Notes under the pieces: generated by a model
Databases searched by the model: none
Seen by the model: only the letters and a program-made list of their open reading frames with translations
Told to the model about the DNA's origin: nothing
In this document: piece after piece, positions 5,854 through 21,697 of the stretch
How the letters are laid out: every line of letters begins with the position of its first letter
Position numbering within the stretch: position 1 is the stretch's first letter
Program-made: the position numbers and the translations under genes
IMG/VR virus record: IMGVR_UViG_3300009702_000017
Coordinates: 36,315 to 100,314 of that record
Source of the DNA: a virus
Reading direction: 5' to 3' (one strand)
DNA length: 64,000 bases

Positions 5854-7197
5854 CTAGTCGAACAAACGTACATACGTATATGCTTGATTTCCAGATTTCC
5901 ACGTCTTTCCAGGAATAGGGACACGAACCCAACCGGCATTGTCCATATGCACGTCAGCCTCTCCTGGCTCGCATGCCCAATGTTCCCAACGCTGAAGAGT
6001 TGTAGTGCCTACCTCTAATACATCCTCGTCTGAGGTAGCTCCTCTAAAGGCACGAATACCGTCAGCGCTTTCAAATACAGGCTGCTTACTCTTCAGCGTC
6101 TTCGTCCAACCAGCACATTGATAAACATAGCCATTGTGTCCTTGTCCCTCATCGTGGTAGGTGATTAAGACAGGCCACCGTGTGCGATCGATTTCGTTGT
6201 GCATCTGCTGCATCAATGGTTCGGACAGGTGCTCCAAGTATCTCTCCGATTTGGGAACAGCGACCATTCTAGACAAGGCAAGAACGCCCTGGGGTGCCTC
6301 TGGACACACATTTCTCGCACTTCCTATAGATGGTGGACGCCAAAGAAATCCAGCAACCAGCTTATCGGATTCGTACACCCCAAAAGAGTAGGTAGCAATT
6401 GGAGGCGCGGTGCCATATCCATGATACCTTTCGCAAAGCTCGCGTACTTCTTGTACTGGACACCTTACCAACCGAAACGGTAACGCCTTGGCCCATAGAT
6501 ACTCCAAGGGCATTCTATCTCTCTTACCGGTATTGCACGAAAGGCAAGCAGGAACTAAGTTTGAGTATTGATGAGCATAGTCCCATCTGGAAATAGGAAT
6601 TGCGTGGTCGATAGTAAGATTGGAATCCTTCTTCCCACAATACGCACAACGGTTGTCAAAGGACTCTTTTATCTTCTGCCAATCTATGCTTGTCAGTACG
6701 TATCCCGTTAAAAGCTTCTTTCCACGCCTTTTTAACCGATAGACATGTCTCTTATGTGCAAGCCATACCCGATACTCCTCAGACTCAAGCTTCCGCAATC
6801 GATAGGACTTGTCATACTCACGCTTTCTGTCCTTGTTCAGGCGTGCACTTAGCGTAACCCTATCAAGAATCGACTGCCTATTGTCCTTGTAGTATTGTCT
6901 ATCTCGTTCTCGCTTAGCCTCTAGGTGATCTTCGTTGTACTTCAATTGGCGTTTTTTCTTGCAATCCTTACAGATCGCCATCCTCCCATCTTTACCAGAA
7001 GGAAGCGCATAGAAGTCCTGTACAGACTTCACTAGACCACATTTAGAGCAACGCTTAGAGCCTTCCTGTACCGGAGGTCTGTTGTGACGAACCCTAAAGC
7101 AATCCTTGCATTCAGATCGCAGCCCATCGGACTTGCCGGAGTCCTTTGAGAAAGCTGACACGGGTTTTTGCTTACCACAAATAGAACACGTCTTCAC
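5854..7197 (-). CDS. Zn-finger/HNH endonuclease fused to a Mom-like (GNAT-fold) DNA-modification domain
   Basis: N-terminal CxxC repeats; CAYCG...TIDHAIP...NLVPACLSCN (HNH); C-terminal LSRM...LITYHDEGQGHNGYVYQCAGW resembles the Mom family ELxR...SYAD...H.G..YQA.NW. Confidence 0.75.
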   Translation of the reverse strand: MKTCSICGKQKPVSAFSKDSGKSDGLRSECKDCFRVRHNRPPVQEGSKRCSKCGLVKSVQDFYALPSGKDGRMAICKDCKKKRQLKYNEDHLEAKRERDRQYYKDNRQSILDRVTLSARLNKDRKREYDKSYRLRKLESEEYRVWLAHKRHVYRLKRRGKKLLTGYVLTSIDWQKIKESFDNRCAYCGKKDSNLTIDHAIPISRWDYAHQYSNLVPACLSCNTGKRDRMPLEYLWAKALPFRLVRCPVQEVRELCERYHGYGTAPPIATYSFGVYESDKLVAGFLWRPPSIGSARNVCPEAPQGVLALSRMVAVPKSERYLEHLSEPLMQQMHNEIDRTRWPVLITYHDEGQGHNGYVYQCAGWTKTLKSKQPVFESADGIRAFRGATSDEDVLEVGTTTLQRWEHWACEPGEADVHMDNAGWVRVPIPGKTWKSGNQAYTYVRLFD

Positions 7198-7205
7198 ACT
7201 ACATA

Positions 7206-7214
7206 TACAGCGAG
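7206..7214 (-). promoter_or_regulatory. phage promoter motif CTCGCTGTA (leaderless geometry)
   Basis: Exactly 8 nt before GTG 7197, no RBS. Confidence 0.65.
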
Positions 7215-7244
7215 AAAACCGGCTATCCCTTTTGAGATAGCCGG
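7215..7244 (-). terminator. intrinsic terminator after the major capsid gene
   Basis: CCGGCTATC/GATAGCCGG stem followed by TTTT. Confidence 0.8.
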
Positions 7245-7276
7245 CCCAGGAGAGACAGCGGTGCTGTCAGGAGGAA

Positions 7277-8674
7277 CTAGCTGAGGTTGTCAACCAGAAC
7301 GTTGCGGCGAGGAATGGTAACCGCCAAGGTGAGGAACCGGAAGTGCGCTTCGGGCATGCTGAGGTCGGTCACCGCGAGCTTCAAGCGGCTATACGGAGCA
7401 AGCTGCTTGATGGTCATGGTATCACCTTGGGTGAGGTATCCAGTCACAAACCCAGGAGTCTTGTTGTCGAGGTCGGTGAACACGGTGGTTCCGGTGGTTG
7501 CAGCCTTCACGCGACCAATGTACTTGGCCTGTGCGGCGGTTCCACCGGCAGGAGACCGGTACACATTGTAGAACCGGACTACGCCACCGCCAGAGGTGAT
7601 GGTCACAGTAGTCACGTCACCATTCGCACCTACGGTCGCAGTCGCAGCAGCACTTGCTGTCGATTCGCCCACCTCGTTACCTGCGGTCACAAAGTAGACG
7701 AATGTCTCACCAGCCAGGAACGGAGTAGTAGTGCCAGCAACAGCCGCACTTGCTACAGTGATCGTCGGAGTAGCAGGACCATTTGCACGAGTAGGAGCGG
7801 GACGGGTCTTGCCTGAAAGGAAACGGCTTGATTCCATTTCGACAACGCCACCCGACACCCACTGGCGCCGCATGCTGATGCCCTGGGTATCCTGCGGACT
7901 ACCGGCAAGAATGATGCGTTCCTTGGTGTAGGCAATCTTGTTGTAGTTCGCCAACACGATTGGGTCAACAATCAGCTTGTCGGCCGAACCCATGTTCATA
8001 GCGCTACGAACATGCGCGTCTTCCACCATGCTCTGCGAGAGAGTCCCACCAGCGGTAAGAACCACCGATTCGTCAGAACCGTACTCATCGAACATCAGAT
8101 CCTGAGCATTCCTCATACTATCGGACTGGCGAATCTGGATGTCCATGCCAGGGATGTTTGGAAGCGTAGGGGTTGCAAGCGGGTTGCCGTCGAACACCCC
8201 ACCGTTGGAGAAGTCAGCCTTCCCACGGAAGAGGTCGAACTCAACGTCACCGGCGATCTTCATTGCAGCGTCTTCTGCCGCACGCTCCTCAGCCTTCTTG
8301 CCGTCCACGGTATCGACCATGTTGGCAACCAGGGTTACCCGGCGGATGTGGCTATAGAAGCACATCGGAACGACGACACGAACGAAGTCCGAAGTGGACT
8401 CGGCGCCGACGTTTCCTTCGAGGGCCGCAGACCCACCGAACTGACCGTAGCTAAGCTGACGGTCGAACTGTGCCAGAGTTGACTTCACATCATCAACCTC
8501 AAGCATGTTCTGGAGCTTGATGTGCTTGTCACTGAAGGTGGTGTTGTAAAGAACCGGCGAAAGATCCTCTACCTGAAGGGCTGCACCCTGCACCAACGCG
8601 CCAGGAGCGGCGTTGTAAGACCCGCCTTCTAGGGCCTTGACCAGTGCTTCGATGTTTGCGATTGCGTCTGCCAT
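7277..8674 (-). CDS. major capsid protein (SPO1/Twort-like)
   Basis: 465 aa; GAALQVEDLS, EDA..KIA..VE..LF.G, YNVYRS and LAVTIPRRNVLVDN parallel the Herelleviridae MCP; strong RBS; N-terminal LVKAL. Confidence 0.88.
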   Translation of the reverse strand: MADAIANIEALVKALEGGSYNAAPGALVQGAALQVEDLSPVLYNTTFSDKHIKLQNMLEVDDVKSTLAQFDRQLSYGQFGGSAALEGNVGAESTSDFVRVVVPMCFYSHIRRVTLVANMVDTVDGKKAEERAAEDAAMKIAGDVEFDLFRGKADFSNGGVFDGNPLATPTLPNIPGMDIQIRQSDSMRNAQDLMFDEYGSDESVVLTAGGTLSQSMVEDAHVRSAMNMGSADKLIVDPIVLANYNKIAYTKERIILAGSPQDTQGISMRRQWVSGGVVEMESSRFLSGKTRPAPTRANGPATPTITVASAAVAGTTTPFLAGETFVYFVTAGNEVGESTASAAATATVGANGDVTTVTITSGGGVVRFYNVYRSPAGGTAAQAKYIGRVKAATTGTTVFTDLDNKTPGFVTGYLTQGDTMTIKQLAPYSRLKLAVTDLSMPEAHFRFLTLAVTIPRRNVLVDNLS

Positions 8675-8714
8675 TGTTTTCTCCTATTACTAGGTTGTTG
8701 TTTGAAAGCGTGCC

Positions 8715-9593
8715 TTACTGAAGAAGGTGCTTGATGTCATCAAGGTTTGCCCTGTTGTACATATAGGCGGTGACGAGCCGTCTATCTTCCTTCTTCATAT
8801 CTGGGCTCCGAACGGCCTTGTTCAGCCGCTCAGTGACCTCGGACTTTGAGAGCTTGGTAACGTCCACTTCGGACTTGTCTAGCTTCTCCTCAGTCCCCGG
8901 CTTTGCGACGTGACTGATGTGAGTGATTGCCTTGCGGAGCGGCCTGTTGGTCATCAGATGGATCACCTTCTCTACATTCGAGAGACGGCCATTTGACTTG
9001 CTCAACTGCTCCTGGAGGGCCTTGATCTCTGCGTCCTTCGCAGCGATAGCTGCCCTGTCACTCTTGAGCGTTGGAGTTGCCTCGGGAGGAGGGCCACCGG
9101 GACCAGCTGGACCACTAGCTGGAGGAGATGGTGGAGCACCCTCTGGACCAGAAGCACCGCCCTGGGCGCCCCCAAGAACGGCCATGAGAGCCTGCTTGGT
9201 AGCGAGGTAGTGAAGCTCTAGCTCCTGTGGGGGAAGCTGCGCATATTCATTGACAAGAGCCTCCATGTCAGGGGGTCCGCCTTCTGCGCCTTCCTCACCA
9301 GGAATTCCTTCTGGAGATCCCTCGGGAGATCTTTCTGCGTCAGCGCTTTCCTCACCAGCCTCAGGCGGGATTGGATTTTCTGCATCTACATCATCCGCAC
9401 CCTCAACTCCAGGGGAGCCGCTATTGGTAGGGACGGGGGCGGGGACCTCTTCGTCGCCGTCAGGCTCTTCGCCAGGAATTTCATCCTTACGGAGAGGCTG
9501 CGCGTTCGCATCTGCGCCTACGCTCTTGTGGAACACCTCTAGCACGTCCCCAAGAACTTGATCGATTTCCTCATTTGAAATTCGAAGTGTCAT
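8715..9593 (-). CDS. putative scaffolding protein
   Basis: Acidic, Pro/Gly-rich with coiled coil; immediately upstream of the MCP; several LxK[S/A] motifs. Confidence 0.6.
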   Translation of the reverse strand: MTLRISNEEIDQVLGDVLEVFHKSVGADANAQPLRKDEIPGEEPDGDEEVPAPVPTNSGSPGVEGADDVDAENPIPPEAGEESADAERSPEGSPEGIPGEEGAEGGPPDMEALVNEYAQLPPQELELHYLATKQALMAVLGGAQGGASGPEGAPPSPPASGPAGPGGPPPEATPTLKSDRAAIAAKDAEIKALQEQLSKSNGRLSNVEKVIHLMTNRPLRKAITHISHVAKPGTEEKLDKSEVDVTKLSKSEVTERLNKAVRSPDMKKEDRRLVTAYMYNRANLDDIKHLLQ

Positions 9594-9642
9594 TTGTTCT
9601 TCTCTCGTTTGGGTTAGTAGTTAGCTACGTGCGTGCTAGCTA

Positions 9643-10098
9643 TTAGGAAGCAGAGGTCATTGGATACTGGATCTCGCTATCGAAGGTTGCCTGGAGGTTT
9701 GCGGCCACCAAAGTCGCTGCCGTAGGAGCAGTTCCGTTTGCGCTGTTGAAGATTTCGACAGTGGCGTTGTGCCATACAGCTTCACCGATGAGAGCCATCA
9801 GGGTGGCCCAATCGTTGATGTCGGCACCCGCACCGGCAGGGTTTGCCTCAAGGCCGATCTGAATCACCGATGGAACATAGGTGGGTGCGGTCAAACCAAG
9901 AGAGTCCTTGGCGAGAGGCCAATCAACGGGACGAACCTTGATAAAGCCCCCTGCTGATCCAGCGGTGCCAGCCCCTACTTGGATAGTAGGGGACTCGTCG
10001 GTATCAAAGCCTTCGGTAATGGTAAGTGCCGGAAGACGAAGCTTCAGGTTGCTTGCGATCTGGTGAGCTAGCTCAATTGCCTTGTAAGAAGTTGCCAT
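9643..10098 (-). CDS. putative head structural protein
   Basis: Ala/Thr-rich 151 aa with GGAG RBS inside the head operon. Confidence 0.55.
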   Translation of the reverse strand: MATSYKAIELAHQIASNLKLRLPALTITEGFDTDESPTIQVGAGTAGSAGGFIKVRPVDWPLAKDSLGLTAPTYVPSVIQIGLEANPAGAGADINDWATLMALIGEAVWHNATVEIFNSANGTAPTAATLVAANLQATFDSEIQYPMTSAS

Positions 10099-10204
10099 TC
10101 TTTACTCCTGCGAGTTGTTTTGTGGGGAGTACCGTTCCGTACACCTATAGAATTGCTTTTGAGCATGAGGCAAATTCTGTGCAAAGCGTAGCAATCTAGC
10201 TGAT

Positions 10205-10570
10205 ATGCGATGCTCCTCATGCAAAGTCGACCTTCCAGACAACCAATTTCATCAAGCTGGAAGGAGATACAACAAAGAGCATCGTGAGTATCGCTGCAAA
10301 TTCTGTAGGTCAGAACAGCGATATGAAAAGCTGTACCCGGATACCGTCTGTATCCTGTGCGGAAAACACCGGAAGCTCGAAAACAACCTTGCGTGTCACA
10401 GGTGCAATCGAGACAGCGGACTGAGGCAATGTGGTGTCTGTGGAGAAATCCAGCTTACTGAGCTAGAGTTCTATGGACGCCATAGCACCTGCAAGACATG
10501 CCTTAAGCATTCACAGTCGAAAAGGGGTTCTGTCCAGTCTGTACCGGCTTCGGAGACTCAGGTGGCCTAA
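10205..10570 (+). CDS. Cys-rich multi-zinc-finger protein
   Basis: Six CxxC pairs; CAATCTA-N6-ATG upstream; converges on the GGDEF gene. Confidence 0.65.
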   Translation: MRCSSCKVDLPDNQFHQAGRRYNKEHREYRCKFCRSEQRYEKLYPDTVCILCGKHRKLENNLACHRCNRDSGLRQCGVCGEIQLTELEFYGRHSTCKTCLKHSQSKRGSVQSVPASETQVA

Positions 10571-11801
10571 TCGGTGGCTTATCCAGAGGCTCAAATGGAA
10601 TGACTCCTTCTCTGCCAGGAACAGCAGAATGAGCATATAGCGCATGGGGCGCTCTAATCGATCCGACTCGTGCTTCTGGGTCACCACCTAGCGCCGCTAC
10701 AGCCGATTTCTTCTGAACCTTCGCGCCACTGTTCAGGGCAAAGTCGGCTTGCTGGGGGGTCTCGCCAAGGCCAGCCGAGATAGATAGCTTGTGCGTACCG
10801 CCAACAGCAGGAACCCCTTCAAGCTCTGTGCACAAATGACAGAGGAACCGACTAGCGTGCTCATACTGGGGAAAGTGAGCACTGAACTCGTCTCCACCAA
10901 ACCGATGAAGCTTCCCCTGTGGATCCTGACCTTCATAGGTTCTCGTCATGGCTCGCTGCATGGCGTCTCCCATCGTACGAATAGCATTGTCGCCCTGCTC
11001 ATGTCCAAGCTCATCGTTGATGCTCTTGAAGTCATTGGCATCCATCATCACATGAACACCCTGCCGTGCAGGCTGTGTTTCCAAAAAGTCGCGATAAGCT
11101 CTCTTGTTGCCAATCCCCGGAACCATCTCGTCTTCAAACAGTTCCTTGCGAATGGTGTCATAGTCTTCTGGATCAAGATGCCCTGCATCAACAAGCGAGC
11201 GAAGCTTATCCATCGAGCCGGTAACTGGAGACTCGGCCTTGATCAACTCGTAGAATGCGTTCTTAGTCTTCTTCACGGACTTCTCCAAAGTCTTTGTGTA
11301 ACGCAGAGTAGCAAGTCCCTGCTCTACATTCTGTACGATTCGCTCGATTTCCTGCAATGCAAGCGGAGCACCATCCAAATGCGCAGTTCCTTCGATATAC
11401 TCAAGCAAACGCGGACGTTCCATTCCTACCCTCTGATACAGGAATGAGTTCGGTCTGTCTGCAATGGCTTGTGCTGGCTCATCTGGTTTCACGTCCAGAG
11501 AACCGTTATCGTCGCCACCATCTTCTGCCTCAAATGGCTTCAATAGCTCTGGATACAACCCTTTCCTGACATCTCCCTTCGAGACGATTTGGAAGTAGGG
11601 GTGCTTCTTCATGCGCTGCAAGAAATCTAATGTTCCCTGATGACACACCCCTTCTGGCAAGTCGCTCAAATGCTCGAAGTAATCCGATAGCACATGTAAA
11701 CCATCGTCTAGAATGGCAAACTTCCCTGAGTGCTGTCGATGTACACCACTAGAATGAGGACGAATGACGTACACGTTGTAGATGTGATCGTAGTCTAGCA
11801 T
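10503..11801 (-). CDS. head-cluster protein with a C-terminal GGDEF diguanylate cyclase domain
   Basis: D..PGIGNKRAY, MMDANDFKSINDELGHEQGD, RFGGDEF (10884-10898), SISAG...ADFAL...K. Confidence 0.9.
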   Translation of the reverse strand: MLDYDHIYNVYVIRPHSSGVHRQHSGKFAILDDGLHVLSDYFEHLSDLPEGVCHQGTLDFLQRMKKHPYFQIVSKGDVRKGLYPELLKPFEAEDGGDDNGSLDVKPDEPAQAIADRPNSFLYQRVGMERPRLLEYIEGTAHLDGAPLALQEIERIVQNVEQGLATLRYTKTLEKSVKKTKNAFYELIKAESPVTGSMDKLRSLVDAGHLDPEDYDTIRKELFEDEMVPGIGNKRAYRDFLETQPARQGVHVMMDANDFKSINDELGHEQGDNAIRTMGDAMQRAMTRTYEGQDPQGKLHRFGGDEFSAHFPQYEHASRFLCHLCTELEGVPAVGGTHKLSISAGLGETPQQADFALNSGAKVQKKSAVAALGGDPEARVGSIRAPHALYAHSAVPGREGVIPFEPLDKPPIRPPESPKPVQTGQNPFSTVNA

Positions 11802-11813
11802 TATTCCTTACCC

Positions 11814-14417
11814 TTATACCGACCCGGGTGGTTGCCAAGCATCTGGGTTTCGAGTTATCTGGTTAAACGAAGCCTTTGGATTCTGCTCATGACGAAGTTG
11901 CATCCTCTGAAGCCTCTGCCCAGCAAGAGTTCCCGCTCTTTCAAGCCGATACTTGTCCGCCAACCTCCTTACCTCGTTGGGGTCAAGGCCCCTTAGCCAA
12001 TCAGCAGCGTTTTTATGGAGCGGTTTTGTCAGATCCAAATCGTCATTGTAATCTAGATACTCCATATCCCTGCGCCGCTCATTAGCCATTGTATTTCCAT
12101 GATCAATTAGATACATGTTATCGCGATTTGGCCCACCGAAGAGAAAATTCCCCCTATGTCTATCTTCATTATTAAGAACAGTATCAAAAAGACCAAACCT
12201 GTGAAGCGTACCATTGTCCTTCATCCGCTGCAAAATGTCTCGGGTTGTACTTGTCTTAGTATATCCGGATTCCGCATTCTCCACACCCTCTTGTACAGAC
12301 ATCTCTCGCTCTCTATTCCTTGGATCGAGTATGTGCGCAGTCACAGGAACATGATCCCCAAGGCCAAAACTCTTAGCTAACTCATACGCAAAAGCCTCTT
12401 TTCTTGACATAGGATCACCATGTAGGCTAGACTTGACAAGGACAGGCTTCCCATGGGCACCAAGACGCCAATGTGTGCTATACGCACCGGAGTCCGCCAA
12501 ACGAATCAAAGGCGCCTCCGATAAATCAAGCCCATGAATCAAGGCGCGCTGTTCTTCGCTCTGCGGTGTAATGATATGCTTGTCGGCGTCCACTACAGTT
12601 GGAGCGCCATATTTCATTGGCAACCGATGGAGGGTATAGGACGAACCCTCTCCCAAACTCATACGTTTCGGTTCGCCACCTTCTTCGCCAATCTTGTGGC
12701 CGTAGGCTAACCCTAGTTGTCCCTTGACGCCGCTTCCTGTGAATTCGTAAACCTTGTACCCATTGCCATCATTACCAGTTGCGTATCCCGGCTTTATGGT
12801 TTGCCCTTTCCATTCCACAGGTTCCATCTCTGGAATCTCAACCGAATTCTCCGACATGGCCTTGGCAAGCCTAGCAGCCTCAATAGCAATTCTGTGCTTT
12901 CGTAGATCCCTTTCAAGCTGTGTCCTAGGCTCAGACTTCTCTGTTGGCTCTTCTAGATCCTGTTGCTGAACGCCCAAGATTCCATGAATGGCTTGACGTA
13001 TCCTCTGATGCCTATACAAATCGTCTTCATTGTCAATATGTGGCTCGAAAAATACCTCAGGAACAAAGCTGCTTGAAATAGAATTAGGCCCATCTTCATT
13101 AGACCACACTCTGGCGGCCTTGGTAGGCTTTAGGACAAAGCCACCTCGTTCCAATGCACGCAATACGTTCGGACGGAAGTATTGCTTTAGATGTTCTGGC
13201 TTACGAAACCCAAACAATATAGGATTGGGGTGTTGTCCCGAAAACCCGTGATGAAACATATGGTAATCGGAAGGATCAAAGGTTTTTTCGGGCCCAGGTT
13301 GATCGGTGATCCTAAGATCTGCCCTTTCAACCGGATCGTCGGAATCACTGTATCGTCGAATAGCCTCGAACCCAGCACCTTGGAATGGCCCTTCTCCATC
13401 ATCGTTCTCAAACCGATATACTGTCATCGGATTCTTGGGATCATTGTGGATGAGCGCCATCTTGGCTAGCTTCACCTCGGCCTTCTTCAGTCCAAATACC
13501 GAAACAAGCTTGGCGAACTTCTCTAACGTCGCGTCCTTGTCCTCTGACTCTGCCAATACACCACCGAGACGATTGGCCAGGAACTTCTTCAGATCGCCCT
13601 TATTGGGATCGTAGTCACGCGCCGCCGCCTTCGCTTGACTAAGTAGCCACAACTTCTTGAGACGAGCAGACCGATCCTCACGCTGAAGAGCAGCACCTCC
13701 TACCAACCCACCGGGAGCAGCACTAGGGACACTGGCAGCAAGTGCCTTACCAAGCTTTCCCTCTGTCACAACAGGATTCGAGTACATCGTTACTTGTCCG
13801 GCGAGATGACGGTAGTTGGGGTGTTGTAGCTCGCTCTTGTTGATGTTCTCTAGGATGTCCTCCTTCGCCTTCCGAGGCTTGCTGTCGTCTACCTTGGGAT
13901 CGTACACCAAGCCACTGATGGCAGTCTTGTTACAAGGCTTGACAGTGATGGCGACTTGACGCATAATGGTACGCTTAAGACGATTTCCCTTGCGCTCAAG
14001 GGTTCCACCCTGGATACTATACCTCACAAGCAACGGCTCGTTGTGCTCAATCTGGTCACGCACGATAGCCGCCAGTGAAACAGCATTGAGATGACCGGAT
14101 CCATCAAACAGACGCACCATCCCATACAGAAACGGGACCTTGATCTCATCCCAGTAGTGCCTCTGCCGATCGGTTTCGCAATCGCCCTTCTTGAAAATTT
14201 TCTTGACGTAGATGATCTTACCTACGAAATCGTTCGAAGAAGCTCCGTTTGCCTCTTCGTCACGATGCTCCCAGTTAGCGAGCGCCTTTCCTTCCTCGCC
14301 ATCGCTGATATCTACGCCCTTAATCTCCAGGATTTCACCAGACGAATCAATGGCCTCTGTACCAAAGGCACCATCAATAACCATCCCCTTGGACCTACTG
14401 GTGTCTGGCAGCTGCAT
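11814..14417 (-). CDS. prohead protease fused to an unknown domain and a C-terminal PI3/4K/HipA-like kinase
   Basis: N-terminal DSSGE...NWEH...VGKI...YSIQG protease pattern; C-terminal VLVK...EAFAYELA...DRHRGNFL...LIDHG; start reassigned to ATG 14417. Confidence 0.8.
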   Translation of the reverse strand: MQLPDTSRSKGMVIDGAFGTEAIDSSGEILEIKGVDISDGEEGKALANWEHRDEEANGASSNDFVGKIIYVKKIFKKGDCETDRQRHYWDEIKVPFLYGMVRLFDGSGHLNAVSLAAIVRDQIEHNEPLLVRYSIQGGTLERKGNRLKRTIMRQVAITVKPCNKTAISGLVYDPKVDDSKPRKAKEDILENINKSELQHPNYRHLAGQVTMYSNPVVTEGKLGKALAASVPSAAPGGLVGGAALQREDRSARLKKLWLLSQAKAAARDYDPNKGDLKKFLANRLGGVLAESEDKDATLEKFAKLVSVFGLKKAEVKLAKMALIHNDPKNPMTVYRFENDDGEGPFQGAGFEAIRRYSDSDDPVERADLRITDQPGPEKTFDPSDYHMFHHGFSGQHPNPILFGFRKPEHLKQYFRPNVLRALERGGFVLKPTKAARVWSNEDGPNSISSSFVPEVFFEPHIDNEDDLYRHQRIRQAIHGILGVQQQDLEEPTEKSEPRTQLERDLRKHRIAIEAARLAKAMSENSVEIPEMEPVEWKGQTIKPGYATGNDGNGYKVYEFTGSGVKGQLGLAYGHKIGEEGGEPKRMSLGEGSSYTLHRLPMKYGAPTVVDADKHIITPQSEEQRALIHGLDLSEAPLIRLADSGAYSTHWRLGAHGKPVLVKSSLHGDPMSRKEAFAYELAKSFGLGDHVPVTAHILDPRNREREMSVQEGVENAESGYTKTSTTRDILQRMKDNGTLHRFGLFDTVLNNEDRHRGNFLFGGPNRDNMYLIDHGNTMANERRRDMEYLDYNDDLDLTKPLHKNAADWLRGLDPNEVRRLADKYRLERAGTLAGQRLQRMQLRHEQNPKASFNQITRNPDAWQPPGSV

Positions 14418-14423
14418 ACCTAA

Positions 14424-14430
14424 TAGATTG
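14424..14430 (-). promoter_or_regulatory. candidate late promoter CAATCTA-N6-ATG
   Basis: Same spacing to ATG as at 10192 and 16040. Confidence 0.45.
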
Positions 14431-14494
14431 TGGGGGAGCAAAAAAGGGGGATCCGTCTCTCCGAATGCGCATCGCAGAAATACCAAAGTAGTGC

Positions 14495-14523
14495 TTGACA
14501 TCTAGAGCGGCTAGCGGTATAAC
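14495..14523 (+). promoter_or_regulatory. sigma70-type early promoter
   Basis: TTGACA-17-TATAAC, then AAAGGAG RBS. Confidence 0.85.
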
Positions 14524-14543
14524 CATCATCGAAAGGAGATCCC

Positions 14544-15278
14544 ATGCCCCGCCTGAAGAAAGAGGTTGTCCTCGCCCGAGAGAAGTTCGTTCGAGATTTC
14601 TTCAAGAACCACCCTGCCGCCAAAGTTGACGACGCCCAGAAGGCCATCCAGGATAGTACGGGGATGCGTATGGCGCCTCCACGGTTGAAGGAGCTTTACG
14701 GGGAAACGCGCGGCACCGGAACCACTTCGATCACCCCCGCCGCAAGTCCTGTCACGGATGACGCCAAGATCGATAGTGCCTACACTCCCCCGTCTGATGA
14801 CGAGGATGACGCCATGTCCTCCATCCCCCTGGCACCCGACGGATACGTTCCCCAGACGCCGATCTCCGATGAGCAGAAGAAGACCATGTACTCAGAGCTT
14901 TGCGACCGCATGAACGACATGATGGACCACTACAATGCGGATAACATCCCCGATCGCGTCAAGTTCTACGCCAACCGAATTTACGCCGCACCCGATCTCC
15001 AGATCGCCAAGGAGGTGCGACACAAGACTCTCCAGAAGCTCCAGATCCACTTCCTGGCCATGTGGTCCAAGCACCGGATCCTTGGTCCCGACAGCCTCCA
15101 GGGGTGCCTGAAGCGCTCCAAGGAAGCGGACAACCTTGCGAACTTCCTGGAGTCCAAGAACGATCTCCAGGGGGCCCGGCGGGAGCGCCAGCGGGCAGCA
15201 AGGATGCGCGCCAAGGCTACCGAACTTCGGGCACTCCAGGTCGAGGGAGTCTCGGACGAAGCCGCACAAAGCACTTGA
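14544..15278 (+). CDS. hypothetical early protein
   Basis: 244 aa; promoter and RBS upstream; G/C-ending codons. Confidence 0.8.
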   Translation: MPRLKKEVVLAREKFVRDFFKNHPAAKVDDAQKAIQDSTGMRMAPPRLKELYGETRGTGTTSITPAASPVTDDAKIDSAYTPPSDDEDDAMSSIPLAPDGYVPQTPISDEQKKTMYSELCDRMNDMMDHYNADNIPDRVKFYANRIYAAPDLQIAKEVRHKTLQKLQIHFLAMWSKHRILGPDSLQGCLKRSKEADNLANFLESKNDLQGARRERQRAARMRAKATELRALQVEGVSDEAAQST

Positions 15279-15303
15279 CTTTATCATTTCCAGGTAGTAT
15301 TGT
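15275..15303 (+). promoter_or_regulatory. sigma70-type early promoter
   Basis: TTGACT-17-TATTGT. Confidence 0.7.
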
Positions 15304-15323
15304 AGTTGCACAAGGAGAAACAC

Positions 15324-15707
15324 ATGGCGCTCTCAAAGAGGATGAGACTTCCCAAGACCCTGGAATATCTGGACCTGGAGTCCATCCGCACCGCCCGGGA
15401 AGAGGTCGTGGTTCTGGAGGCGAAGTTGACGGAGAAGAAGAAGGCGCTCCGAGAGATGGAGGGGACGGCAATCGCCATCCTGGAGCATGGAGGCTACTGC
15501 CGGGGACCTCTCACGGCGACCCTGGATACCGTCACTAAGGCTGGCAAGCGTAGCCCCAAATGGAAGGGTCTCTACGCGACACACCTCCAGACCATTCACG
15601 ATCTCACCGAAGAGCAGGTGAAGGAACGATTCCAGGGGATCGTGGACAGCATGGAACCGAACGTCACCAAGTCCACCAACCTCGTCATTTCAGAAAAGGA
15701 GGGGTAA
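15324..15707 (+). CDS. hypothetical early protein
   Basis: AAGGAG RBS, ATG 15324 (MALSKRMRL...). Confidence 0.75.
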   Translation: MALSKRMRLPKTLEYLDLESIRTAREEVVVLEAKLTEKKKALREMEGTAIAILEHGGYCRGPLTATLDTVTKAGKRSPKWKGLYATHLQTIHDLTEEQVKERFQGIVDSMEPNVTKSTNLVISEKEG

Positions 15708-15760
15708 TATGTCATCGACGGTTACAGCAAAGCCAACTACAATGCCGTGACGGACACAGA

Positions 15761-15934
15761 ATGGAGGAATTGGATCGCCTCGTTGACGAGAAGCTGATGG
15801 AAGCCGAAAACGAGGCCGATCGCGAGCTTTCAAGGCAGATGCGCGACTACGGGTATGAAGAGTGGCCGCCTACCCAATCGGAAGATGGGTGGATCCTCCT
15901 GAAGGAGAGCCCCTACCAAGGAAGACGCATCTGA
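15761..15934 (+). CDS. small acidic hypothetical protein
   Basis: MEELDRLVDEKLMEAENE...; start uncertain. Confidence 0.45.
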   Translation: MEELDRLVDEKLMEAENEADRELSRQMRDYGYEEWPPTQSEDGWILLKESPYQGRRI

Positions 15935-16002
15935 CAAGGGATTTGTGACGTGGAGGCGAAGTGCCCTCTGGGATTGTCTGGGAATGTGGAACAAAATCAC
16001 AA

Positions 16003-16031
16003 TAGACGCCGACGCCTGGAAGCCCTATAAC
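16003..16031 (+). promoter_or_regulatory. sigma70-type promoter
   Basis: TAGACG-17-TATAAC. Confidence 0.6.
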
Positions 16032-16052
16032 CCAAACAGCAATCTATAGACA

Positions 16053-16325
16053 ATGGAAAATTCAACCTACAAGATCATGGCTTGGCTCCCGTCAAGCGGA
16101 AATGTTGCCCTAGTGGCCCCTAATGGATCGGTCGGATGGGCGGGTCCCTCAACCGAATATCACTTCCAACCGATGTTCCCACAGTTCATCGAGTCCGCAG
16201 TCCAAAAGCACTGGTACGTTCGCCTCAAGACTCCTTTGGAGGTTACTCTAGAGGATCTCCCTAGTGTGGTGGAACATATGGAGCGTGGATTCGAGGCCAA
16301 CAGCGGACAAGGCCAAGGCGAATAG
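16053..16325 (+). CDS. hypothetical protein
   Basis: 90-aa ORF behind a promoter. Confidence 0.65.
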   Translation: MENSTYKIMAWLPSSGNVALVAPNGSVGWAGPSTEYHFQPMFPQFIESAVQKHWYVRLKTPLEVTLEDLPSVVEHMERGFEANSGQGQGE

Positions 16326-16328
16326 TTC

Positions 16329-16357
16329 TTGACGCCCAGTGTCCAATGTGCTAACTT
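16329..16357 (+). promoter_or_regulatory. sigma70-type promoter with extended -10
   Basis: TTGACG-17-TAACTT preceded by TG; AGGAGG RBS follows. Confidence 0.65.
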
Positions 16358-16378
16358 GTGATCACAAAGGAGGAAGTA

Positions 16379-16687
16379 ATGCACGAGTTCAATATCGATG
16401 CCCATCTCGACTATCAGCTGTACCAGCACCTCTCCGCCGAAGAGGAGTCTGATCGTCTCTACGAGGAAGCATGGGGAAACGCCATCCCATGTCCGGTTCA
16501 CGGCAAAGACCTTCTGGACGAGCGGCTGAATCCAATCACCTACATGCCGGAAATCTACTGCACTGGTATCAATGGCTGCCCCAACTGCGGCGGCTCCGGC
16601 CCCTGCGACGAGGGTTCCGATAATGTCGCTCTCGATCGCTGCCCCGGCTGCGGGGCGGCGCTGGTGAATGGGCAGGTCAAGGACTGA
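16379..16687 (+). CDS. Cys-rich hypothetical protein
   Basis: AGGAGG RBS; CPVH, CPNC and CPGC motifs. Confidence 0.7.
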   Translation: MHEFNIDAHLDYQLYQHLSAEEESDRLYEEAWGNAIPCPVHGKDLLDERLNPITYMPEIYCTGINGCPNCGGSGPCDEGSDNVALDRCPGCGAALVNGQVKD

Positions 16688-16911
16688 TGTCCCTCACTAC
16701 CTGCCCCATTTGCCGTACCTCCTACGACCTTGAAGGATTCCGGGCCCTTGAGTTCGTGGAGTACAAGCAAGTCCGGGGCACCTACAAGCGCATGGAGATT
16801 CGACGCTGCAAGTGTCACAAGGGCGTCAGAATCCTCTGGGTGGACAGCTGGTTAGAACCGTGTCCACCACCCTCCATCGACCCTCCAGTAGCACAAATGA
16901 GGCTCCTATGA
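16687..16911 (+). CDS. small Zn-ribbon protein
   Basis: CPIC...CKC; TGATG coupling. Confidence 0.6.
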   Translation: MSLTTCPICRTSYDLEGFRALEFVEYKQVRGTYKRMEIRRCKCHKGVRILWVDSWLEPCPPPSIDPPVAQMRLL

Positions 16912-17273
16912 CAACAAGAGAAGAATTCCAGCAGGCAATCGAAGAGGAAGATCGGATTCGAAAGTCAATGCACCCGATCGAGCTTCAGATCGACCAGGAA
17001 CTCCAAGCCGAAACGATGGAGACATTCAAGGGATTCTTCCCAAAGTCCAAGATTACCGATTGGGTAAAGGCACAGAAGAAGATTCCCGCCGATGTCCTGG
17101 TAGAAATGTTAGGGCGCTACCACGAAAAAGCGCGTACAGCCGGAGATAAGTGGATGGCTGATCGAAAAACGGCGAAGGAGCGCGTTCACACACTCGCCAA
17201 GGATCTTCGCCCCATCCCCGGAAGAGAAAGGTTCAAGTGGAAGTCTCGCTACGAATCCGAGTACCATACTTAG
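16908..17273 (+). CDS. hypothetical protein (frame stays open past TAG to 17372)
   Basis: GAGG RBS; MTTREEFQQAIEEEDR... Confidence 0.65.
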   Translation: MTTREEFQQAIEEEDRIRKSMHPIELQIDQELQAETMETFKGFFPKSKITDWVKAQKKIPADVLVEMLGRYHEKARTAGDKWMADRKTAKERVHTLAKDLRPIPGRERFKWKSRYESEYHT

Positions 17274-17368
17274 GGCTTCGGGGCACACCACTACGCCCAA
17301 AACACAGCGGAGATGTTCGCTGACGTAGCTAAATTCTACGACATCCCGGTTAATGACCTACCTACTAC

Positions 17369-20300
17369 CTAACTTGTAGCAGGCACCCACCCTTTATCAA
17401 AGGTGAAGCTACCTTGCGTACCGTGACGCCTCTGGTGTAGCTGTGTGAGGAAGTGCTCAAAGTCGGTACGTAAGTTCGCCTTGCGCGCCAGCATAGCGTT
17501 CTCGCGTTCCTGGCGACGTGGAGTTCCCGGAGGGAAGAACTTGTCCAGATACGGAGAGAACTCCCTCAGATACTCGTGATCGGGAATGGACTGTGCACCT
17601 CTGATGAACGGTTCTAGCTGCTGTGGATCAAAATCCATACGGTTGTCCGCAAATGCATGCCAGAAGTTGTTGTAGTACGGCGCCGGAGTGCCATACATCG
17701 CATTTGGATTGTAGTCAAGTGCCAAACGATCATTCGGGAAGTACCTGAATGCCTGTTCCTTATCGATAGCAGCAATCCTACCATCCTTGCGCACGATGAA
17801 ATTGTCCGGGTGACTGTCGTGCTGGGACATCAGCCAATCGGCTACGTGAGCGGCCCCAACGTCCCTCTTCTGCACATCCGTTAGCTTGGACGGTGGGATA
17901 GACCTCAACGTCCCTGTCGTGTCATAGAGAGGCTGCACGGTGGCTACATTGTCACCGTTATTCACTCGATGGATTGGCACCGCAACTGGATTGAACCTAC
18001 GCTCGATACGCGACAGCGCCTGCTGCACATCGGCTCGGAATGGCTCTGGCTCGCCCGCTTTTGAAAGTGCTGGCTTTACAAGCCACTTGCTTCCGTTCTT
18101 GTGCTGCGGTCCCTCGTAGATGTGCTTCTCACCCGCACCTCCAAGATTAGCTCCATTCCGAACATACTGAAGCTCATGGAACTCTGGTTCTTCGTCGCTT
18201 TTCCCTAACTTCTCTTCGGTCTGTGTCGGGGCGTACACTTGTTGTATATCACCCTGTTCCCCATGCCTGAACACTGGGATGTTGTACTTCTTGCCCAAAT
18301 CAACAAGTTGTGCTGCCCGGTCAGCTGCCCTTTCCGCGTAGTACGACGAAGATTTTTCGAGATGTGGATAATGCAATGAAGCAACATCCTTACTCAAGTC
18401 TACTCCACCATGAATATGTGCTTCTGGTGCATTTATAAAGCGATCTAGCTTACTCCCGTTCGCCAACCCAATAATAGGTGACTGCGAGTTCAATCTATTC
18501 GGGAGCACACCCAGTCTTGGATTTCCGGTGGTGGTTTGAAATATATTCTGAAATGCAATTATACGAGGAAATTCTGATGTTACAGGATGAAGATCCGCTC
18601 CCTCCCTAGGGGACATTCCAGTCGTACTGTCAGCGATATATGCGGTATCGTCACCTGTAAAGGTAGACCGATCCTTAACATGCGGCTTTAACTCTGCCCA
18701 ATAGTCCCCATACCCACGGGCGCCCCCTCGATCAAAAGTCAAATTAGGATGACGACTAGCTATATGTAATGCACCGTATACCGGCCGATACTTCCCATCC
18801 AAATCCCTGGGGAATTTGAATACACTTTCATCCCACTTTTCTCTGTCGGGCCTATCATCTCCCCAATCGCTAGGCGTCCCGTTTGCGAAGGTATTCACAA
18901 ATCTCCCACGCCTCATTAGTCCAGCAATGGCTTCGTGAGGGAAATTCATGGTAATTGGAGCTTCCTCTACATACCTGATGATCTCTGGATCCGAAAGAAC
19001 CTTGTGATAGAAGTCGTATCTATTTTGCAACGGAATACCAGCCGCATCGTTCTGCATCGTCCTAATCACTTTATTGAAATCCGGGTTACTTGGATTGAAC
19101 ACATTGGCAAGGTACTCGGTCCAAACCTTACCATTGTTCCTCCAAGTAGGAGCATTCGGCTTAAATATCTTATCAATAGCTTCCGGGGAATGCTTTCCTA
19201 GCTTCTCTTCCTCTGGCAATGGAAGGTGGACCTGTTCTACCTTGCCTGTGTCACGATCATGCTTGAACACAGGAAGATTGTACTTCTTACCAAGCTCTAC
19301 CATGTCGTTCACCTCACTGGGAGCTATAATCGACGAGTAGTGTAACGAATGTACGTCGTCTGGTAAATGAACACCTCCATGGATCTGCGCTTCAATTGGC
19401 CGAGTACCATTGACACGATACGCAGTCTTATCTACCTTATGCAAATCTGGATGAAGCCAATTCAAAAGTGCGGCACCTGTTGTCTGAACCATACGTGGCT
19501 TCTGGTCTACTAGATCGTTAGGATTGGCAAAGAATAGGTGCTGATACGCAAGCGCTTTCGGGTGATTGATCGTGACAGGCATCCTATGTGCATCTGGCCC
19601 ACTATACGCAAATGTATCGTGTCCCGTGAACGTAGACCTATTCTTCACATGATCATGTAGCTGCGCCCACGCTGCCCCATACGTACTATGGCCTCCATAT
19701 TTTGCTGTATCGCTGTCGTCTCTATTGGTTATGGCAAGAGCACCATAGATGGGTCGGATGGGTCCGGTCTTCATCAAATCTTCCACAGTGTCACGATCAC
19801 GATTAAACGGGAATCCAAATACATCCCGTTCAATGCTCGGCCTCAACCCAGAATAGGAATCTCCCCCGTTTGCATCTGGGTGGAAAGCGTTGAGGAACTT
19901 CCCATCCTTTAGTAATCGTCTAGCCGTAGGTGGATTGAAATTGACAGTGATAGGTGCTTTCTGAATTGCATCCAATAGCTTCTCGTCGAAGACGGGAGCA
20001 TGCTCTTTGAGTGATGGATTCAAGCGATCGTTGATGAAATCTTCCCAGTCCTTTCCGTTCTGTCGAAATCTCTCTACGTTCGGTTCCCAATACTGCTTGA
20101 TCGCTTCCCGTGAGTGCTTTGCCAGCTTGGACTCGCTCTTCCCAATATCATCCTCTTCGGGACTCCAGGTACCACGGTTGAAGACAGATTTGATCTGATG
20201 AGGATGAAAAGCAATGTAGCCTGTCCCTCCTTCGATCTCGTTAGGATACACAACACCGTCGTAGCCTTGATCCAGGAGCTTACGCTTCAGTGCTTGTGCC

Positions 20301-21697
20301 AGTTCGTAAGCGACCTCGTGAGATCCAGTCTCCCGATCCCTTCCAATGAGGTCTAGGTGCACTTCCCTTCTATAGTCGGCGTCGTTGTCATACCGATCCC
20401 ACCCCGGGTCATCGGGATGCCGGCCGATCCAACCATAAGCCTCTGGCAAGTCACTCAAATGGCCTGGAAGATCCTGCTCTAGGATCATGTTCGATAGCTT
20501 ATCTTCGTCTACATAGAGAGGATTGCGGAGCGATAAATAAGCTGGGATGACGCGCCCACCAACGTTTTCGTCGCCTTCGCCGTGGAAACGGCTATCCCTC
20601 CAGTCGCCAGTCTTCTGCGATCCAGTAAATGCGCTTCCTACCTGTGGAGAATCACTGAAATGTGCGCCCAAGAACGAATTTGGGTCCCCGCTAGATCCAA
20701 CAAACGGACCCTCAAGCTCCTCTTCATCAGGCTCATATGGGTCAGCTCCATTAGTGCTAAACTCACTGAAGTTCACAGGCGAGTTCGTACCATGGTACAC
20801 TACCTTGGGTCTATTGTTCTCTGTGATCTGAGAACCATTGAACCAGTGCTTGAACGCTGGGCTGTTTTCCATCGAAGGATCTCGTCCAGACTTCGGTTCA
20901 TCGAACATAGCCAGCTGTTCCGCCTTTTCAAGAGGGCGCTGCTTCTCCCACTCGTCCCACTTCGGTCCCTTGTAGGTCACATGGCCGTTGTGGTCAAAGC
21001 CATATCCAGGCATGAGGGTAGCTATCGTACATCTACAATGCGGGTGCTCCCCAGCAATGCTCGGTTCATTGTCTCCACGCTTATGGTAGCCGGCCTTGCA
21101 TTCTGACAAGCGCCATAGTCTCGGCGTTACATCGTCTTCGTTCAAGTGAAGACGCTTACACTCATCACACAGATGCTCGTCATGTACGACCACGAAATAG
21201 ACAACTGGATCGTTTTCTCCAACGTCCTCATTGATCTTGACGATTCCCTCTAGAGCACCAAAGGCACGTCCGTTCTGCGCCTCGCTATCGATGATTGTCT
21301 TGACATTCTTGCCGACCTCACCCCATACATCCGTGAGCTTTCCGTTCAACACCGTCTCTACGTCAGTGTCGATGCCCTGAGCCTTCGCATCCGCGAGGAA
21401 CGAAGATACTTCGTTGACGACCTTGGCCTTTGCATTAGCGCGAGAGGCATCGAGATAGTTTTCTGCAACGGATAACAACGACTTCAATACCCGAGGATTT
21501 CCATTGACCCCTTCCGCCTCTGCGGCAGTAAGGTACAAGCCCGGAAGAGACATCCGCGACTTACGACCAAACAAGATACGCTTGTCGATGCTACCTTTTC
21601 CGAGGAAGCGAGACTTGGCGCGGTCAAACATTTGATCGATGAGACTATCGATCAACTTGAGAGCGGCGCCAGAGAGAACGTAGTGCGGCGCTGGCAT
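17369..21697 (-). CDS. MuF-like minor head protein fused to an ART-PolyVal-like domain, two DUF3626-like repeats and a kinase-like domain
   Basis: CDEC...HPHCRC (MuF); FKHWF.GS...KVVYHGT; duplicated RP.YGAL...RSTFTG.DT...EA.IHGGV.L..DV.SLHY; C-terminal WLVKP...DSHPDNF...IDKEQAF. Confidence 0.8.
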   Translation of the reverse strand: MPAPHYVLSGAALKLIDSLIDQMFDRAKSRFLGKGSIDKRILFGRKSRMSLPGLYLTAAEAEGVNGNPRVLKSLLSVAENYLDASRANAKAKVVNEVSSFLADAKAQGIDTDVETVLNGKLTDVWGEVGKNVKTIIDSEAQNGRAFGALEGIVKINEDVGENDPVVYFVVVHDEHLCDECKRLHLNEDDVTPRLWRLSECKAGYHKRGDNEPSIAGEHPHCRCTIATLMPGYGFDHNGHVTYKGPKWDEWEKQRPLEKAEQLAMFDEPKSGRDPSMENSPAFKHWFNGSQITENNRPKVVYHGTNSPVNFSEFSTNGADPYEPDEEELEGPFVGSSGDPNSFLGAHFSDSPQVGSAFTGSQKTGDWRDSRFHGEGDENVGGRVIPAYLSLRNPLYVDEDKLSNMILEQDLPGHLSDLPEAYGWIGRHPDDPGWDRYDNDADYRREVHLDLIGRDRETGSHEVAYELAQALKRKLLDQGYDGVVYPNEIEGGTGYIAFHPHQIKSVFNRGTWSPEEDDIGKSESKLAKHSREAIKQYWEPNVERFRQNGKDWEDFINDRLNPSLKEHAPVFDEKLLDAIQKAPITVNFNPPTARRLLKDGKFLNAFHPDANGGDSYSGLRPSIERDVFGFPFNRDRDTVEDLMKTGPIRPIYGALAITNRDDSDTAKYGGHSTYGAAWAQLHDHVKNRSTFTGHDTFAYSGPDAHRMPVTINHPKALAYQHLFFANPNDLVDQKPRMVQTTGAALLNWLHPDLHKVDKTAYRVNGTRPIEAQIHGGVHLPDDVHSLHYSSIIAPSEVNDMVELGKKYNLPVFKHDRDTGKVEQVHLPLPEEEKLGKHSPEAIDKIFKPNAPTWRNNGKVWTEYLANVFNPSNPDFNKVIRTMQNDAAGIPLQNRYDFYHKVLSDPEIIRYVEEAPITMNFPHEAIAGLMRRGRFVNTFANGTPSDWGDDRPDREKWDESVFKFPRDLDGKYRPVYGALHIASRHPNLTFDRGGARGYGDYWAELKPHVKDRSTFTGDDTAYIADSTTGMSPREGADLHPVTSEFPRIIAFQNIFQTTTGNPRLGVLPNRLNSQSPIIGLANGSKLDRFINAPEAHIHGGVDLSKDVASLHYPHLEKSSSYYAERAADRAAQLVDLGKKYNIPVFRHGEQGDIQQVYAPTQTEEKLGKSDEEPEFHELQYVRNGANLGGAGEKHIYEGPQHKNGSKWLVKPALSKAGEPEPFRADVQQALSRIERRFNPVAVPIHRVNNGDNVATVQPLYDTTGTLRSIPPSKLTDVQKRDVGAAHVADWLMSQHDSHPDNFIVRKDGRIAAIDKEQAFRYFPNDRLALDYNPNAMYGTPAPYYNNFWHAFADNRMDFDPQQLEPFIRGAQSIPDHEYLREFSPYLDKFFPPGTPRRQERENAMLARKANLRTDFEHFLTQLHQRRHGTQGSFTFDKGWVPATS

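Follow-up and report, generated by a model that had tools for sequence, protein, structure and literature searches.

A predicted diguanylate cyclase tied to the head maturation protease of Mx1-like phages is a candidate capsid cargo

Many bacteria switch between lifestyles mainly through cyclic di-GMP (c-di-GMP), and phage tampering with this signal is, to our knowledge, known only in indirect form. The phage peptide YIP activates the host diguanylate cyclase YfiN and raises c-di-GMP (PMC8085984); it is a small peptide that acts on a host enzyme after its expression, whereas the phage described here carries a predicted cyclase of its own. We analyzed a GGDEF gene (10503-11801, minus strand) in a 64,000-nucleotide stretch of viral DNA, hereafter the window, which covers positions 36,315 to 100,314 of a 121,050-bp IMG/VR virus record (IMGVR_UViG_3300009702_000017) with an estimated completeness of 74%. 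Positions are those of the window, and features lie on the minus strand unless stated otherwise. By the protein comparisons reported below, the record is related to Myxococcus phage Mx1.

The internal proteins IPI-III and Alt of phage T4 stay in the head and are ejected along with the DNA. Together with the internal proteins of phiKZ/SPN3US-like phages, they resemble the present case in that their genes lie near the prohead protease and scaffold genes and in that they carry a short protease recognition motif, of which the present protein has a candidate; the protease assigned here is of the SPO1 type and the putative motif is hydrophobic-x-K-[AS]-E, in contrast to the L/I-x-E motif of T4. In the SPN3US-like giant phages, processed head proteins are likewise retained and ejected with the DNA (PMC10052503, PMC7411985). 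Instead of a short N-terminal capsid-targeting peptide of 10-20 residues, the window protein has a folded domain of 172 residues ahead of its putative cleavage site.

In 2017, Iyer et al. described GGDEF domains that occur rarely in the polyvalent proteins of phages and prophages, and proposed delivery at invasion (PMC5512222; for example, Acetonema longum WP_004096050.1). In that set, the GGDEF domain is found among predicted delivered cargo inside giant multidomain proteins of Firmicutes prophages, and the likeness in domain content extends to PBECR5, which is present in members of the family studied here. The window protein instead belongs to a fixed two-domain unit with a linker motif, and this unit is linked to the head maturation protease in a clade of Mx1-like myophages. 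The literature searched contained no phage diguanylate cyclase that had been characterized experimentally or placed in the virion.

The only clear phage relative among 50,697 phage-collection records was Mx1 (OR576727). Mx1 encodes WNM70323 (150 residues) and a "nucleotide cyclase," WNM70324 (243 residues); as in the window, these genes have a giant "putative prohead protease" on one side and the scaffold and capsid genes on the other. The "nucleotide cyclase" is annotated in the Mx1 genome paper, where the gene is not discussed. WNM70323 is 25% identical to the N-terminal domain of the window protein (E 6e-10), while WNM70324 is 39% identical to its cyclase part, with the GGDEF motif intact and no RxxD visible before the motif. 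In Mx1, the unit is made of two genes with a TAATG overlap (8537-9720 of the Mx1 locus analyzed), split 14 codons upstream of the linker-motif position, whereas here it is a single gene of 432 codons. The Mx1 cyclase piece opens with an 18-residue segment ending in DLKKMD, which retains the linker motif.

Domains and active site of the GGDEF protein

The GGDEF gene starts 12 nucleotides past the stop of the upstream protease gene, and direct reading places the ribosome-binding site AAGGA (11805-11809) 4 nucleotides 5' of its ATG. A scan of 7000-17500, in which the hits were overall not above chance, gave no promoter-like or terminator-like site between the two genes. From the open reading frame list, Pfam, the homologues, and a structure model, the 432-residue product is divided into an N-terminal domain, a linker, a helical stalk, the GGDEF domain, and a Pro-rich tail.

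The catalytic domain (10626-11135, residues 223-392) closes with a long helix and, at residues 388-392, a strand; it is assigned by Pfam, a PDB profile search, Foldseek, and the model. PF00990 matches residues 230-350 with an E-value of 1.5e-12 and scores 48 bits where the gathering score is 23.8 (50.2 bits in the genome search), and seven PHROG families of unknown function match the same part of the protein. The family profile matches 47 distinct solved GGDEF or diguanylate cyclase sequences in the PDB (best E 6e-14). In the AlphaFold2 model, which was built on 23 homologues, the mean predicted local distance difference test score (pLDDT) is 83.6, with values of 90-98 across the GGDEF domain, and all of the top 50 Foldseek matches of the model in the PDB are GGDEF domains (WspR, DgcB, SiaD, SadC, PleD, DosC, and others). 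A C-terminal RAPxALYAHS stretch was considered as a capsid-targeting tail and found unsupported, as the model makes it the strand at 388-392 that ends the GGDEF domain.

The protein shares with the canonical diguanylate cyclases (PleD, WspR, DgcB, SiaD, GcbC; PF00990) the fold, the GG[D/E]EF motif, the metal-binding Asp, the guanine-reading Asn/Asp pair, and the helical stalk. It differs from them in lacking an RxxD and any known sensor or receiver, in its phage-specific N-terminal domain, and in a divergent last helix and strand; its gene lies in a phage head operon, and its relatives are fused to a capsid protease. The stalk (11136-11228, residues 192-222), as drawn from the model secondary structure and the family alignment, ends in DEMVPGIGNKRAY, which replaces the usual N-terminal turn of GGDEF domains. 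When two copies of the putative processed fragment (residues 190-405) were modeled as a homodimer, the score was 0.40 against a mark of 0.42.

The catalytic signature residues are D254, K259, N262, D271, R300, and G302-F306, the last five forming the GGDEF signature itself (10884-10898). D254, N262, and D271 are the counterparts of PleD D327, N335, and D344, which bind metal (the first Asp) and read guanine (the Asn and the second Asp). With the FK Lys, the Arg ahead of GG, both acidic residues of GGDEF, and the Lys of the last helix also in place, the protein has all residues known to be required in PleD-type cyclases. In an alignment of 23 sequences, with homologues at 31-50% identity, D254, N262, D271, R300, the G302-G-D-E305 stretch, and K361 are invariant, and F306 and K259 are at least 90% conserved. 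A wider set of 151 representatives, being clusters at 50% identity or lower, keeps D254 in 134, N262 in 140, and D271 in 130 cases. All nine key residues are kept by 92 of the 151 (61%); among the 34 forms that have other domains ahead of the unit, 24 keep them. On this evidence, the GGDEF protein is very probably an active cyclase.

The remaining representatives bear on a different explanation, that the protein is mainly a structural or assembly part of the prohead core, scaffold-like or inner-body-like, in which the GGDEF fold would be a building block or nucleotide binder and catalysis would be secondary. In 32 of the 151 (~21%), key catalytic residues are degenerate, while another 27 keep D254, G303, D/E304, and E305 and change at least one other key residue; in both groups the module and its place are retained. 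The N-terminal domain is moreover strictly tied to GGDEF, and the unit always lies among assembly genes. Against this stand the 61% with all nine catalytic residues, fused forms among them, and the invariance of these residues in the clade of the window protein, which is hard to explain without selection for catalysis. We consider a mainly structural role improbable. Since about one-fifth of the representatives are catalytically degenerate, catalysis is perhaps not the sole selected role; as judged from the residues kept, it is under selection in most lineages and lost in some, which leaves room for a second, non-catalytic role. Across the family (proteins P0033-P0176), the signature of degenerate members reads, for example, GGDKF, GGDNF, or GGDSF.

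The residue that selects the base also speaks to the identity of the product. Hypr-GGDEF enzymes, which synthesize cyclic GMP-AMP (cGAMP), have Ser at the position of PleD D344, whereas the window protein has Asp271. Because an Asp occupies this guanine-selecting position, guanosine triphosphate (GTP) is the expected substrate. That the protein makes another product, for example 3',3'-cGAMP as Hypr-GGDEF enzymes do or cyclic di-AMP, is very unlikely. Mx1 is annotated with only a "nucleotide cyclase," and in 12 of the 151 family members the base-selecting Asp is replaced by Asn, but Asp271 and Asn262, the guanine-recognizing pair of PleD-type enzymes, are both found in the window protein and in its close relatives.

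A preliminary description of this DNA had noted the strings D.N.FK.IND..GH..GD and RFGGDEF and a DPQG in place of the RxxD of the I-site. Both strings are present and are now joined by the Pfam, fold, and PDB-profile evidence, and DPQG does stand at the I-site position (10914-10925, residues 293-296, nine to six residues ahead of GG) by sequence and by hidden Markov model (HMM) alignment, in which the register was checked against GcbC (5euh), whose RPAD I-site aligns to this non-RxxD stretch. No RxxD was found in any relative with a recognizable GG[DE]EF-type motif, nor in the 23-sequence alignment. Classical product inhibition of the GGDEF protein is unlikely because the RxxD is absent. The same description had called the enzyme feedback-insensitive and unregulated; the first term agrees with the missing RxxD, but the second goes further than sequence alone allows, for a conserved 172-residue N-terminal domain nearly always accompanies the cyclase. 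This domain could regulate it, and an absent RxxD does not prove an unregulated enzyme.

The N-terminal domain (11286-11801, residues 1-172) is composed of alpha/beta lobes at residues 1-88 and 117-170 and a disordered acidic loop at 89-116, according to two independent models. A VIA-align search of 48,161 chains for fold relatives gave a best Z of 4.5 over ~50 residues; Foldseek matched only the domain's own family in BFVD and nothing below E 0.05 in the AFDB clusters. A profile of the domain searched against 1.84 billion representatives hit 336 clusters, with an E-value of 1e-10 or lower for 278. In a census of 176 sequences by local HMM search, the domain is followed by GGDEF in 150 and is a stand-alone protein of about 90-196 residues in 24, as in Mx1; one 384-residue sequence is an exception, with the N-terminal domain and no detected GGDEF domain. 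We had considered the domain as a general capsid-addressing adaptor for varied cargo, which is ruled out by this census. Because the domain either precedes GGDEF or stands alone, it is, on the census, a dedicated partner of this cyclase specific to the phage clade. A word-indexed search gave 31 full-length homologues at 28-50% identity, all metagenomic and on contigs of up to 181 kb. Three matches came from faecal-metagenome entries named "Bacteriophage sp."; the one inspected, MT835727.1 (28489-42878), is bacterial DNA with genes for ABC transporters, a PBP5-type carboxypeptidase, and a DHH phosphoesterase.

Fusions to the head protease and a conserved linker motif

In 34 of the 176 sequences, the unit of N-terminal domain and GGDEF lies behind other sequence, and 33 of these 34 begin with a region that shares 34-50% identity with residues ~29-423 of the protein encoded directly upstream in the window (11814-14501, 895 residues). 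The architectures are protease/N-terminal domain/GGDEF (about 670-790 residues) and protease/other cargo/N-terminal domain/GGDEF (about 850-1700 residues). Other members have a PBECR5, DUF3626, or PI3_PI4_kinase-like domain C-terminal to the cyclase, so that in its relatives the module is joined both to a head-incorporated carrier and to effector domains. PBECR domains typify the polyvalent proteins that phages deliver at invasion (PMC5512222). The other two domains recur in the head module of the window, DUF3626 on a 1442-residue protein and the kinase-like domain on the protease protein. Because the relatives fuse the unit to the head maturation protease, the module is read as capsid cargo: we infer that a domain covalently joined to this protease necessarily enters the prohead, and this is the strongest evidence for the cargo assignment.

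The assignment depends on the identity of the upstream protein. Its protease domain covers residues 38-196 (13914-14390) and is followed by cargo that includes a PI3/PI4-kinase-like C-terminus. Pfam gave nothing on the protease domain even at E 1, and the family profile matched nothing among the PDB sequences; the identity is settled only by PHROG 1028, through the relatives, and by hhalign. Ten of 18 members of the protease family match phrog_1028, and the family profile aligns with SPO1 gp3.2 at a probability of 97.8% (E 8.6e-13) across the conserved His (NYEH) and Ser (SVEGS) motifs. By these matches, the first 160-200 residues of the 895-residue protein are a head maturation protease of the SPO1 type. 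At the other end of the same protein, a PI3/PI4-kinase-like catalytic loop, DRHRGN...IDHGN, lies at residues ~768-815 (12057-12200) and aligns (E 8e-5) to a region of the relative P0101 that is positive for Pfam PI3_PI4_kinase (PF00454). P0101 has the protease, GGDEF, and kinase-like domains on a single chain of 1704 residues.

The linker between the N-terminal domain and the stalk (11229-11288) is predicted to be disordered at residues 173-188, with pLDDT below 50 at 173-181 and 183-188. It contains LEKS (residues 172-175, 11277-11288) and LIKAE (residues 186-190, 11232-11246), both putative prohead-protease sites and the sole conserved features of an otherwise variable segment. We defined a strict motif as [LIVMF]-x-K-[AS]-E. 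In the head proteins of the window (4,401 residues), it was observed 10 times against 0.58 expected, a count reached in 0 of 2000 shuffles, although the motif was picked after the linker had been viewed and this window statistic is therefore partly post hoc. The other window proteins (12,117 residues) have 3 copies against 1.97 from shuffles (head versus other, Fisher p = 2e-4). Two further tests, on four other loci and on the position of the motif in 149 proteins, are independent of that choice. The head proteins of Mx1 and three other loci contain 5-7 copies per locus against 0.36-0.50 expected (0 of 1000 shuffles), while their non-head proteins contain none, with 0.12-0.53 expected. Across 149 relatives, the strict motif occurs 71 times in the linker between the N-terminal domain and GGDEF and never in the two flanking domains (~42,000 residues), and a looser form is present in the linker of 130.

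The 10 copies in the window are distributed over the scaffold (two), the GGDEF protein (one), the protease protein (two), the 1442-residue protein (two), and the portal (three). The two in the 1442-residue protein, at residues 256 and 518, lie 38 residues before and 10 residues after its ART-PolyVal domain (residues 294-508). Because strict motifs bracket that domain, the arrangement suggests a polyprotein that is cut into separate enzymes. We searched the literature for an experimentally mapped cut site of an SPO1-type protease and found nothing usable. Herelleviridae capsids presumably lose about 23 N-terminal residues, which would fit K23/A24 in the "ALNK-ALEAG" of SPO1. The protease protein also contains, at residues ~252-290 (13632-13748), a copy of ~30 residues of the N-terminal arm of the capsid protein (capsid counterpart, 8560-8674), with the shared pattern L-x-K-A-x-x-A-G...AAP..L..GAALQ.ED. 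An equivalent mimicry of the capsid arm exists between SPO1 gp3.2 and gp6.1, and the copied segment may serve for docking or for cleavage. On the distribution of the motif, hydrophobic-x-K-[AS] is probably the recognition site of the SPO1-type protease, and read in this way it places a cut in the linker of the GGDEF protein, releasing a fragment that would match the product of the Mx1 cyclase gene in size.

The window, Mx1, and four metagenomic loci share one gene order: a protease protein of 895-1976 residues, the GGDEF gene, a gene of ~150 residues, a scaffold of ~280-400 residues, and a capsid protein of ~468 residues. In the window, the GGDEF gene is flanked by portal, ART-PolyVal/DUF3626, protease, scaffold, and capsid genes, the head-module setting by which polyvalent effectors are recognized. 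The preliminary description had placed the gene between a prohead protease and the scaffold and capsid genes and had seen two putative cleavage motifs ahead of the domain. The upstream match to SPO1 gp3.2 and the scaffold-like and capsid genes downstream bear out the former, and the motifs are LEKS and LIKAE, which lie within the disordered stretch or at its border. Its proposal of a cyclase that is either virion-delivered or late has gained on one side, since the 33 protease fusions, the linker motif, and the conserved place in the head module make incorporation more plausible.

The alternative is a late cytoplasmic enzyme that is not packaged, is encoded in the head operon for timing only, and raises c-di-GMP or consumes GTP late in infection, with a stop of motility, a change of the cell surface, or superinfection exclusion as the result. 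The operon is of a late type, the gene has its own ribosome-binding site and is here separate from the protease, and phages do raise c-di-GMP from within the cell through YIP and YfiN (PMC8085984); c-di-GMP also induces the pilus-assembly inhibitor PlzR (PMC11461919). The protease fusion in 33 relatives, however, would put the module inside those proheads, a motif specific to head proteins is conserved in the linker, and the module is fused in relatives to the cargo domains PBECR5 and DUF3626. We therefore regard an exclusively cytoplasmic enzyme as unlikely, and incorporation of the GGDEF protein into the head, with cleavage, as probable.

The surrounding head module

The major capsid protein (7277-8674) matches phrog_752 (E 3.9e-45) and is 57% identical to the major capsid protein of Mx1; its identity to the capsids of SPO1-like Bacillus and Lysinibacillus phages and of Bacteroides phages is 22-25%. 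The scaffold-like protein (8715-9593) has 292 residues and is acidic and Pro-rich, with two strict motifs; it is assigned by alignment with syntenic proteins and by its position, which is as in SPO1. Between the scaffold-like and GGDEF genes lies a head-module gene of 151 codons and unknown function (9643-10098), with a gene of the same size at the same place in Mx1 and in the relatives L002, L003, and L005. Upstream, the 1442-residue protein (17369-21697) has, by Pfam, the ART-PolyVal domain and two DUF3626 stretches, and a MuF domain gave no Pfam match in it. Farther upstream are the portal gene (21697-23871) and a terminase-like gene (24819-26753), the latter with a weak match to Pfam Terminase_3C (E 0.0019). 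An island of small plus-strand genes separates the genes of the 1442-residue and the 895-residue proteins.

Directly after the capsid gene is a fusion of an HNH endonuclease with a Mom-like DNA-modification domain (5854-7197, 447 residues; Pfam HNH, 7.6e-11, and Mom, 2.7e-10), and in L005 a gene of 469 codons sits at the place of this open reading frame. A 121-residue CxxC-rich zinc-ribbon open reading frame on the plus strand (10205-10570) overlaps the last 68 nucleotides of the GGDEF gene. It has a weak PHROG match to endonuclease VII, and L002 has an Endonuclease_7 gene of 256 codons at the equivalent convergent and overlapping place; the frame is probably a homing-endonuclease remnant. A NUDIX hydrolase gene (3-623; Pfam E 2.3e-22) runs off the edge of the window and has one copy of the head motif, MKKSE, at residue 144.

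This NUDIX hydrolase and the ART domain, found in the same head module, bear on the idea of a counter-defence function, in which the cyclic nucleotide product would disturb the cyclic-oligonucleotide-based antiphage signalling system (CBASS), type III CRISPR (clustered regularly interspaced short palindromic repeats) systems, or Panoptes-like decoy signalling instead of motility or the cell surface. Interference of GGDEF domains with host nucleotide responses was proposed by Iyer et al. (PMC5512222), and Mx1, unlike Mx4, escapes an M. xanthus island of CBASS and type III-B, for which its authors suspect Mx1 countermeasures (PMC11506125). This escape lends the role no direct support, and to assign it to the cyclase would be speculation. 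We know of no mechanism by which c-di-GMP blocks these systems; the active site, with Asp271, resembles that of an ordinary GTP-specific diguanylate cyclase, and within the window nothing links the gene to a defence system. We give counter-defence only a small chance.

Delivery to the host and its implications

We propose the following sequence of events. The GGDEF protein would be made late, from the head operon, and built into the prohead with the SPO1-type maturation protease encoded 12 nucleotides upstream. The protease would cut it at the [LIVMF]-x-K-[AS]-E sites of the linker, giving a cyclase fragment of ~240 residues, the size of the Mx1 "nucleotide cyclase." This fragment would remain in the filled head and enter the host along with the DNA, where it would turn GTP into c-di-GMP ahead of any phage gene expression and perturb the functions that c-di-GMP controls, which in Myxococcus are type IV pili, exopolysaccharide, and the nucleoid protein CdbA. 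We infer packaging with good support; that the protein is ejected and acts on the host is speculative. For the whole chain, a packaged, cut, and ejected cyclase that raises c-di-GMP in the host, the chances appear evenly balanced; ejection with early action in the host is a tentative proposal that we would place just short of even.

Several points weigh against this proposal. A folded protein of 25-45 kDa must unfold to traverse the tail, and the fragments made by prohead proteases often exit the capsid rather than remain in it. The cleavage motif is recognized by statistics, and the N-terminus of the capsid protein carries LVKALEAG and not the strict motif. The catalytically degenerate fifth of the family retains the module all the same. 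On the host side, the record is incomplete, as given above, and has a GC content of 50%. Searches of the 121-kb record for genes of PilZ c-di-GMP receptors and EAL phosphodiesterases were negative, so that nothing in the phage points to a target; the target, if there is one, presumably lies in the host for the same reason.

The nearest isolate, Mx1, infects M. xanthus. In this organism, c-di-GMP controls pilus-dependent motility (PMC4686200) and exopolysaccharide production and development (PMC4877007), and it competes with DNA for binding to the essential nucleoid protein CdbA (PMC7156744, PMC10313047). Mx1-like virions may inject a pre-made, protease-released cyclase that has no product inhibition, in which case a burst of c-di-GMP would be the first event of infection; we hold this version to be possible, though rather doubtful. 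If it is true, the burst could shut off pili and motility or free the c-di-GMP-sensitive CdbA before phage transcription. Mx1 can be cultivated on M. xanthus, a host with a well-mapped c-di-GMP biology, and the case is directly testable there.

A hydrophobic-x-K-[AS]-E cleavage site would supply a usable rule by which to parse the cargo polyproteins of a large and mostly uncultured phage clade. If the proposal holds, the cyclase would be the first example of a second-messenger synthase with demonstrated virion delivery, and it would extend the head-delivered enzymes, which include ADP-ribosyltransferases, RNA polymerases, and nucleases, to this class. By building a cyclase into its capsid, a virus would gain control of host signalling from the outset of infection, which would be a novel strategy.

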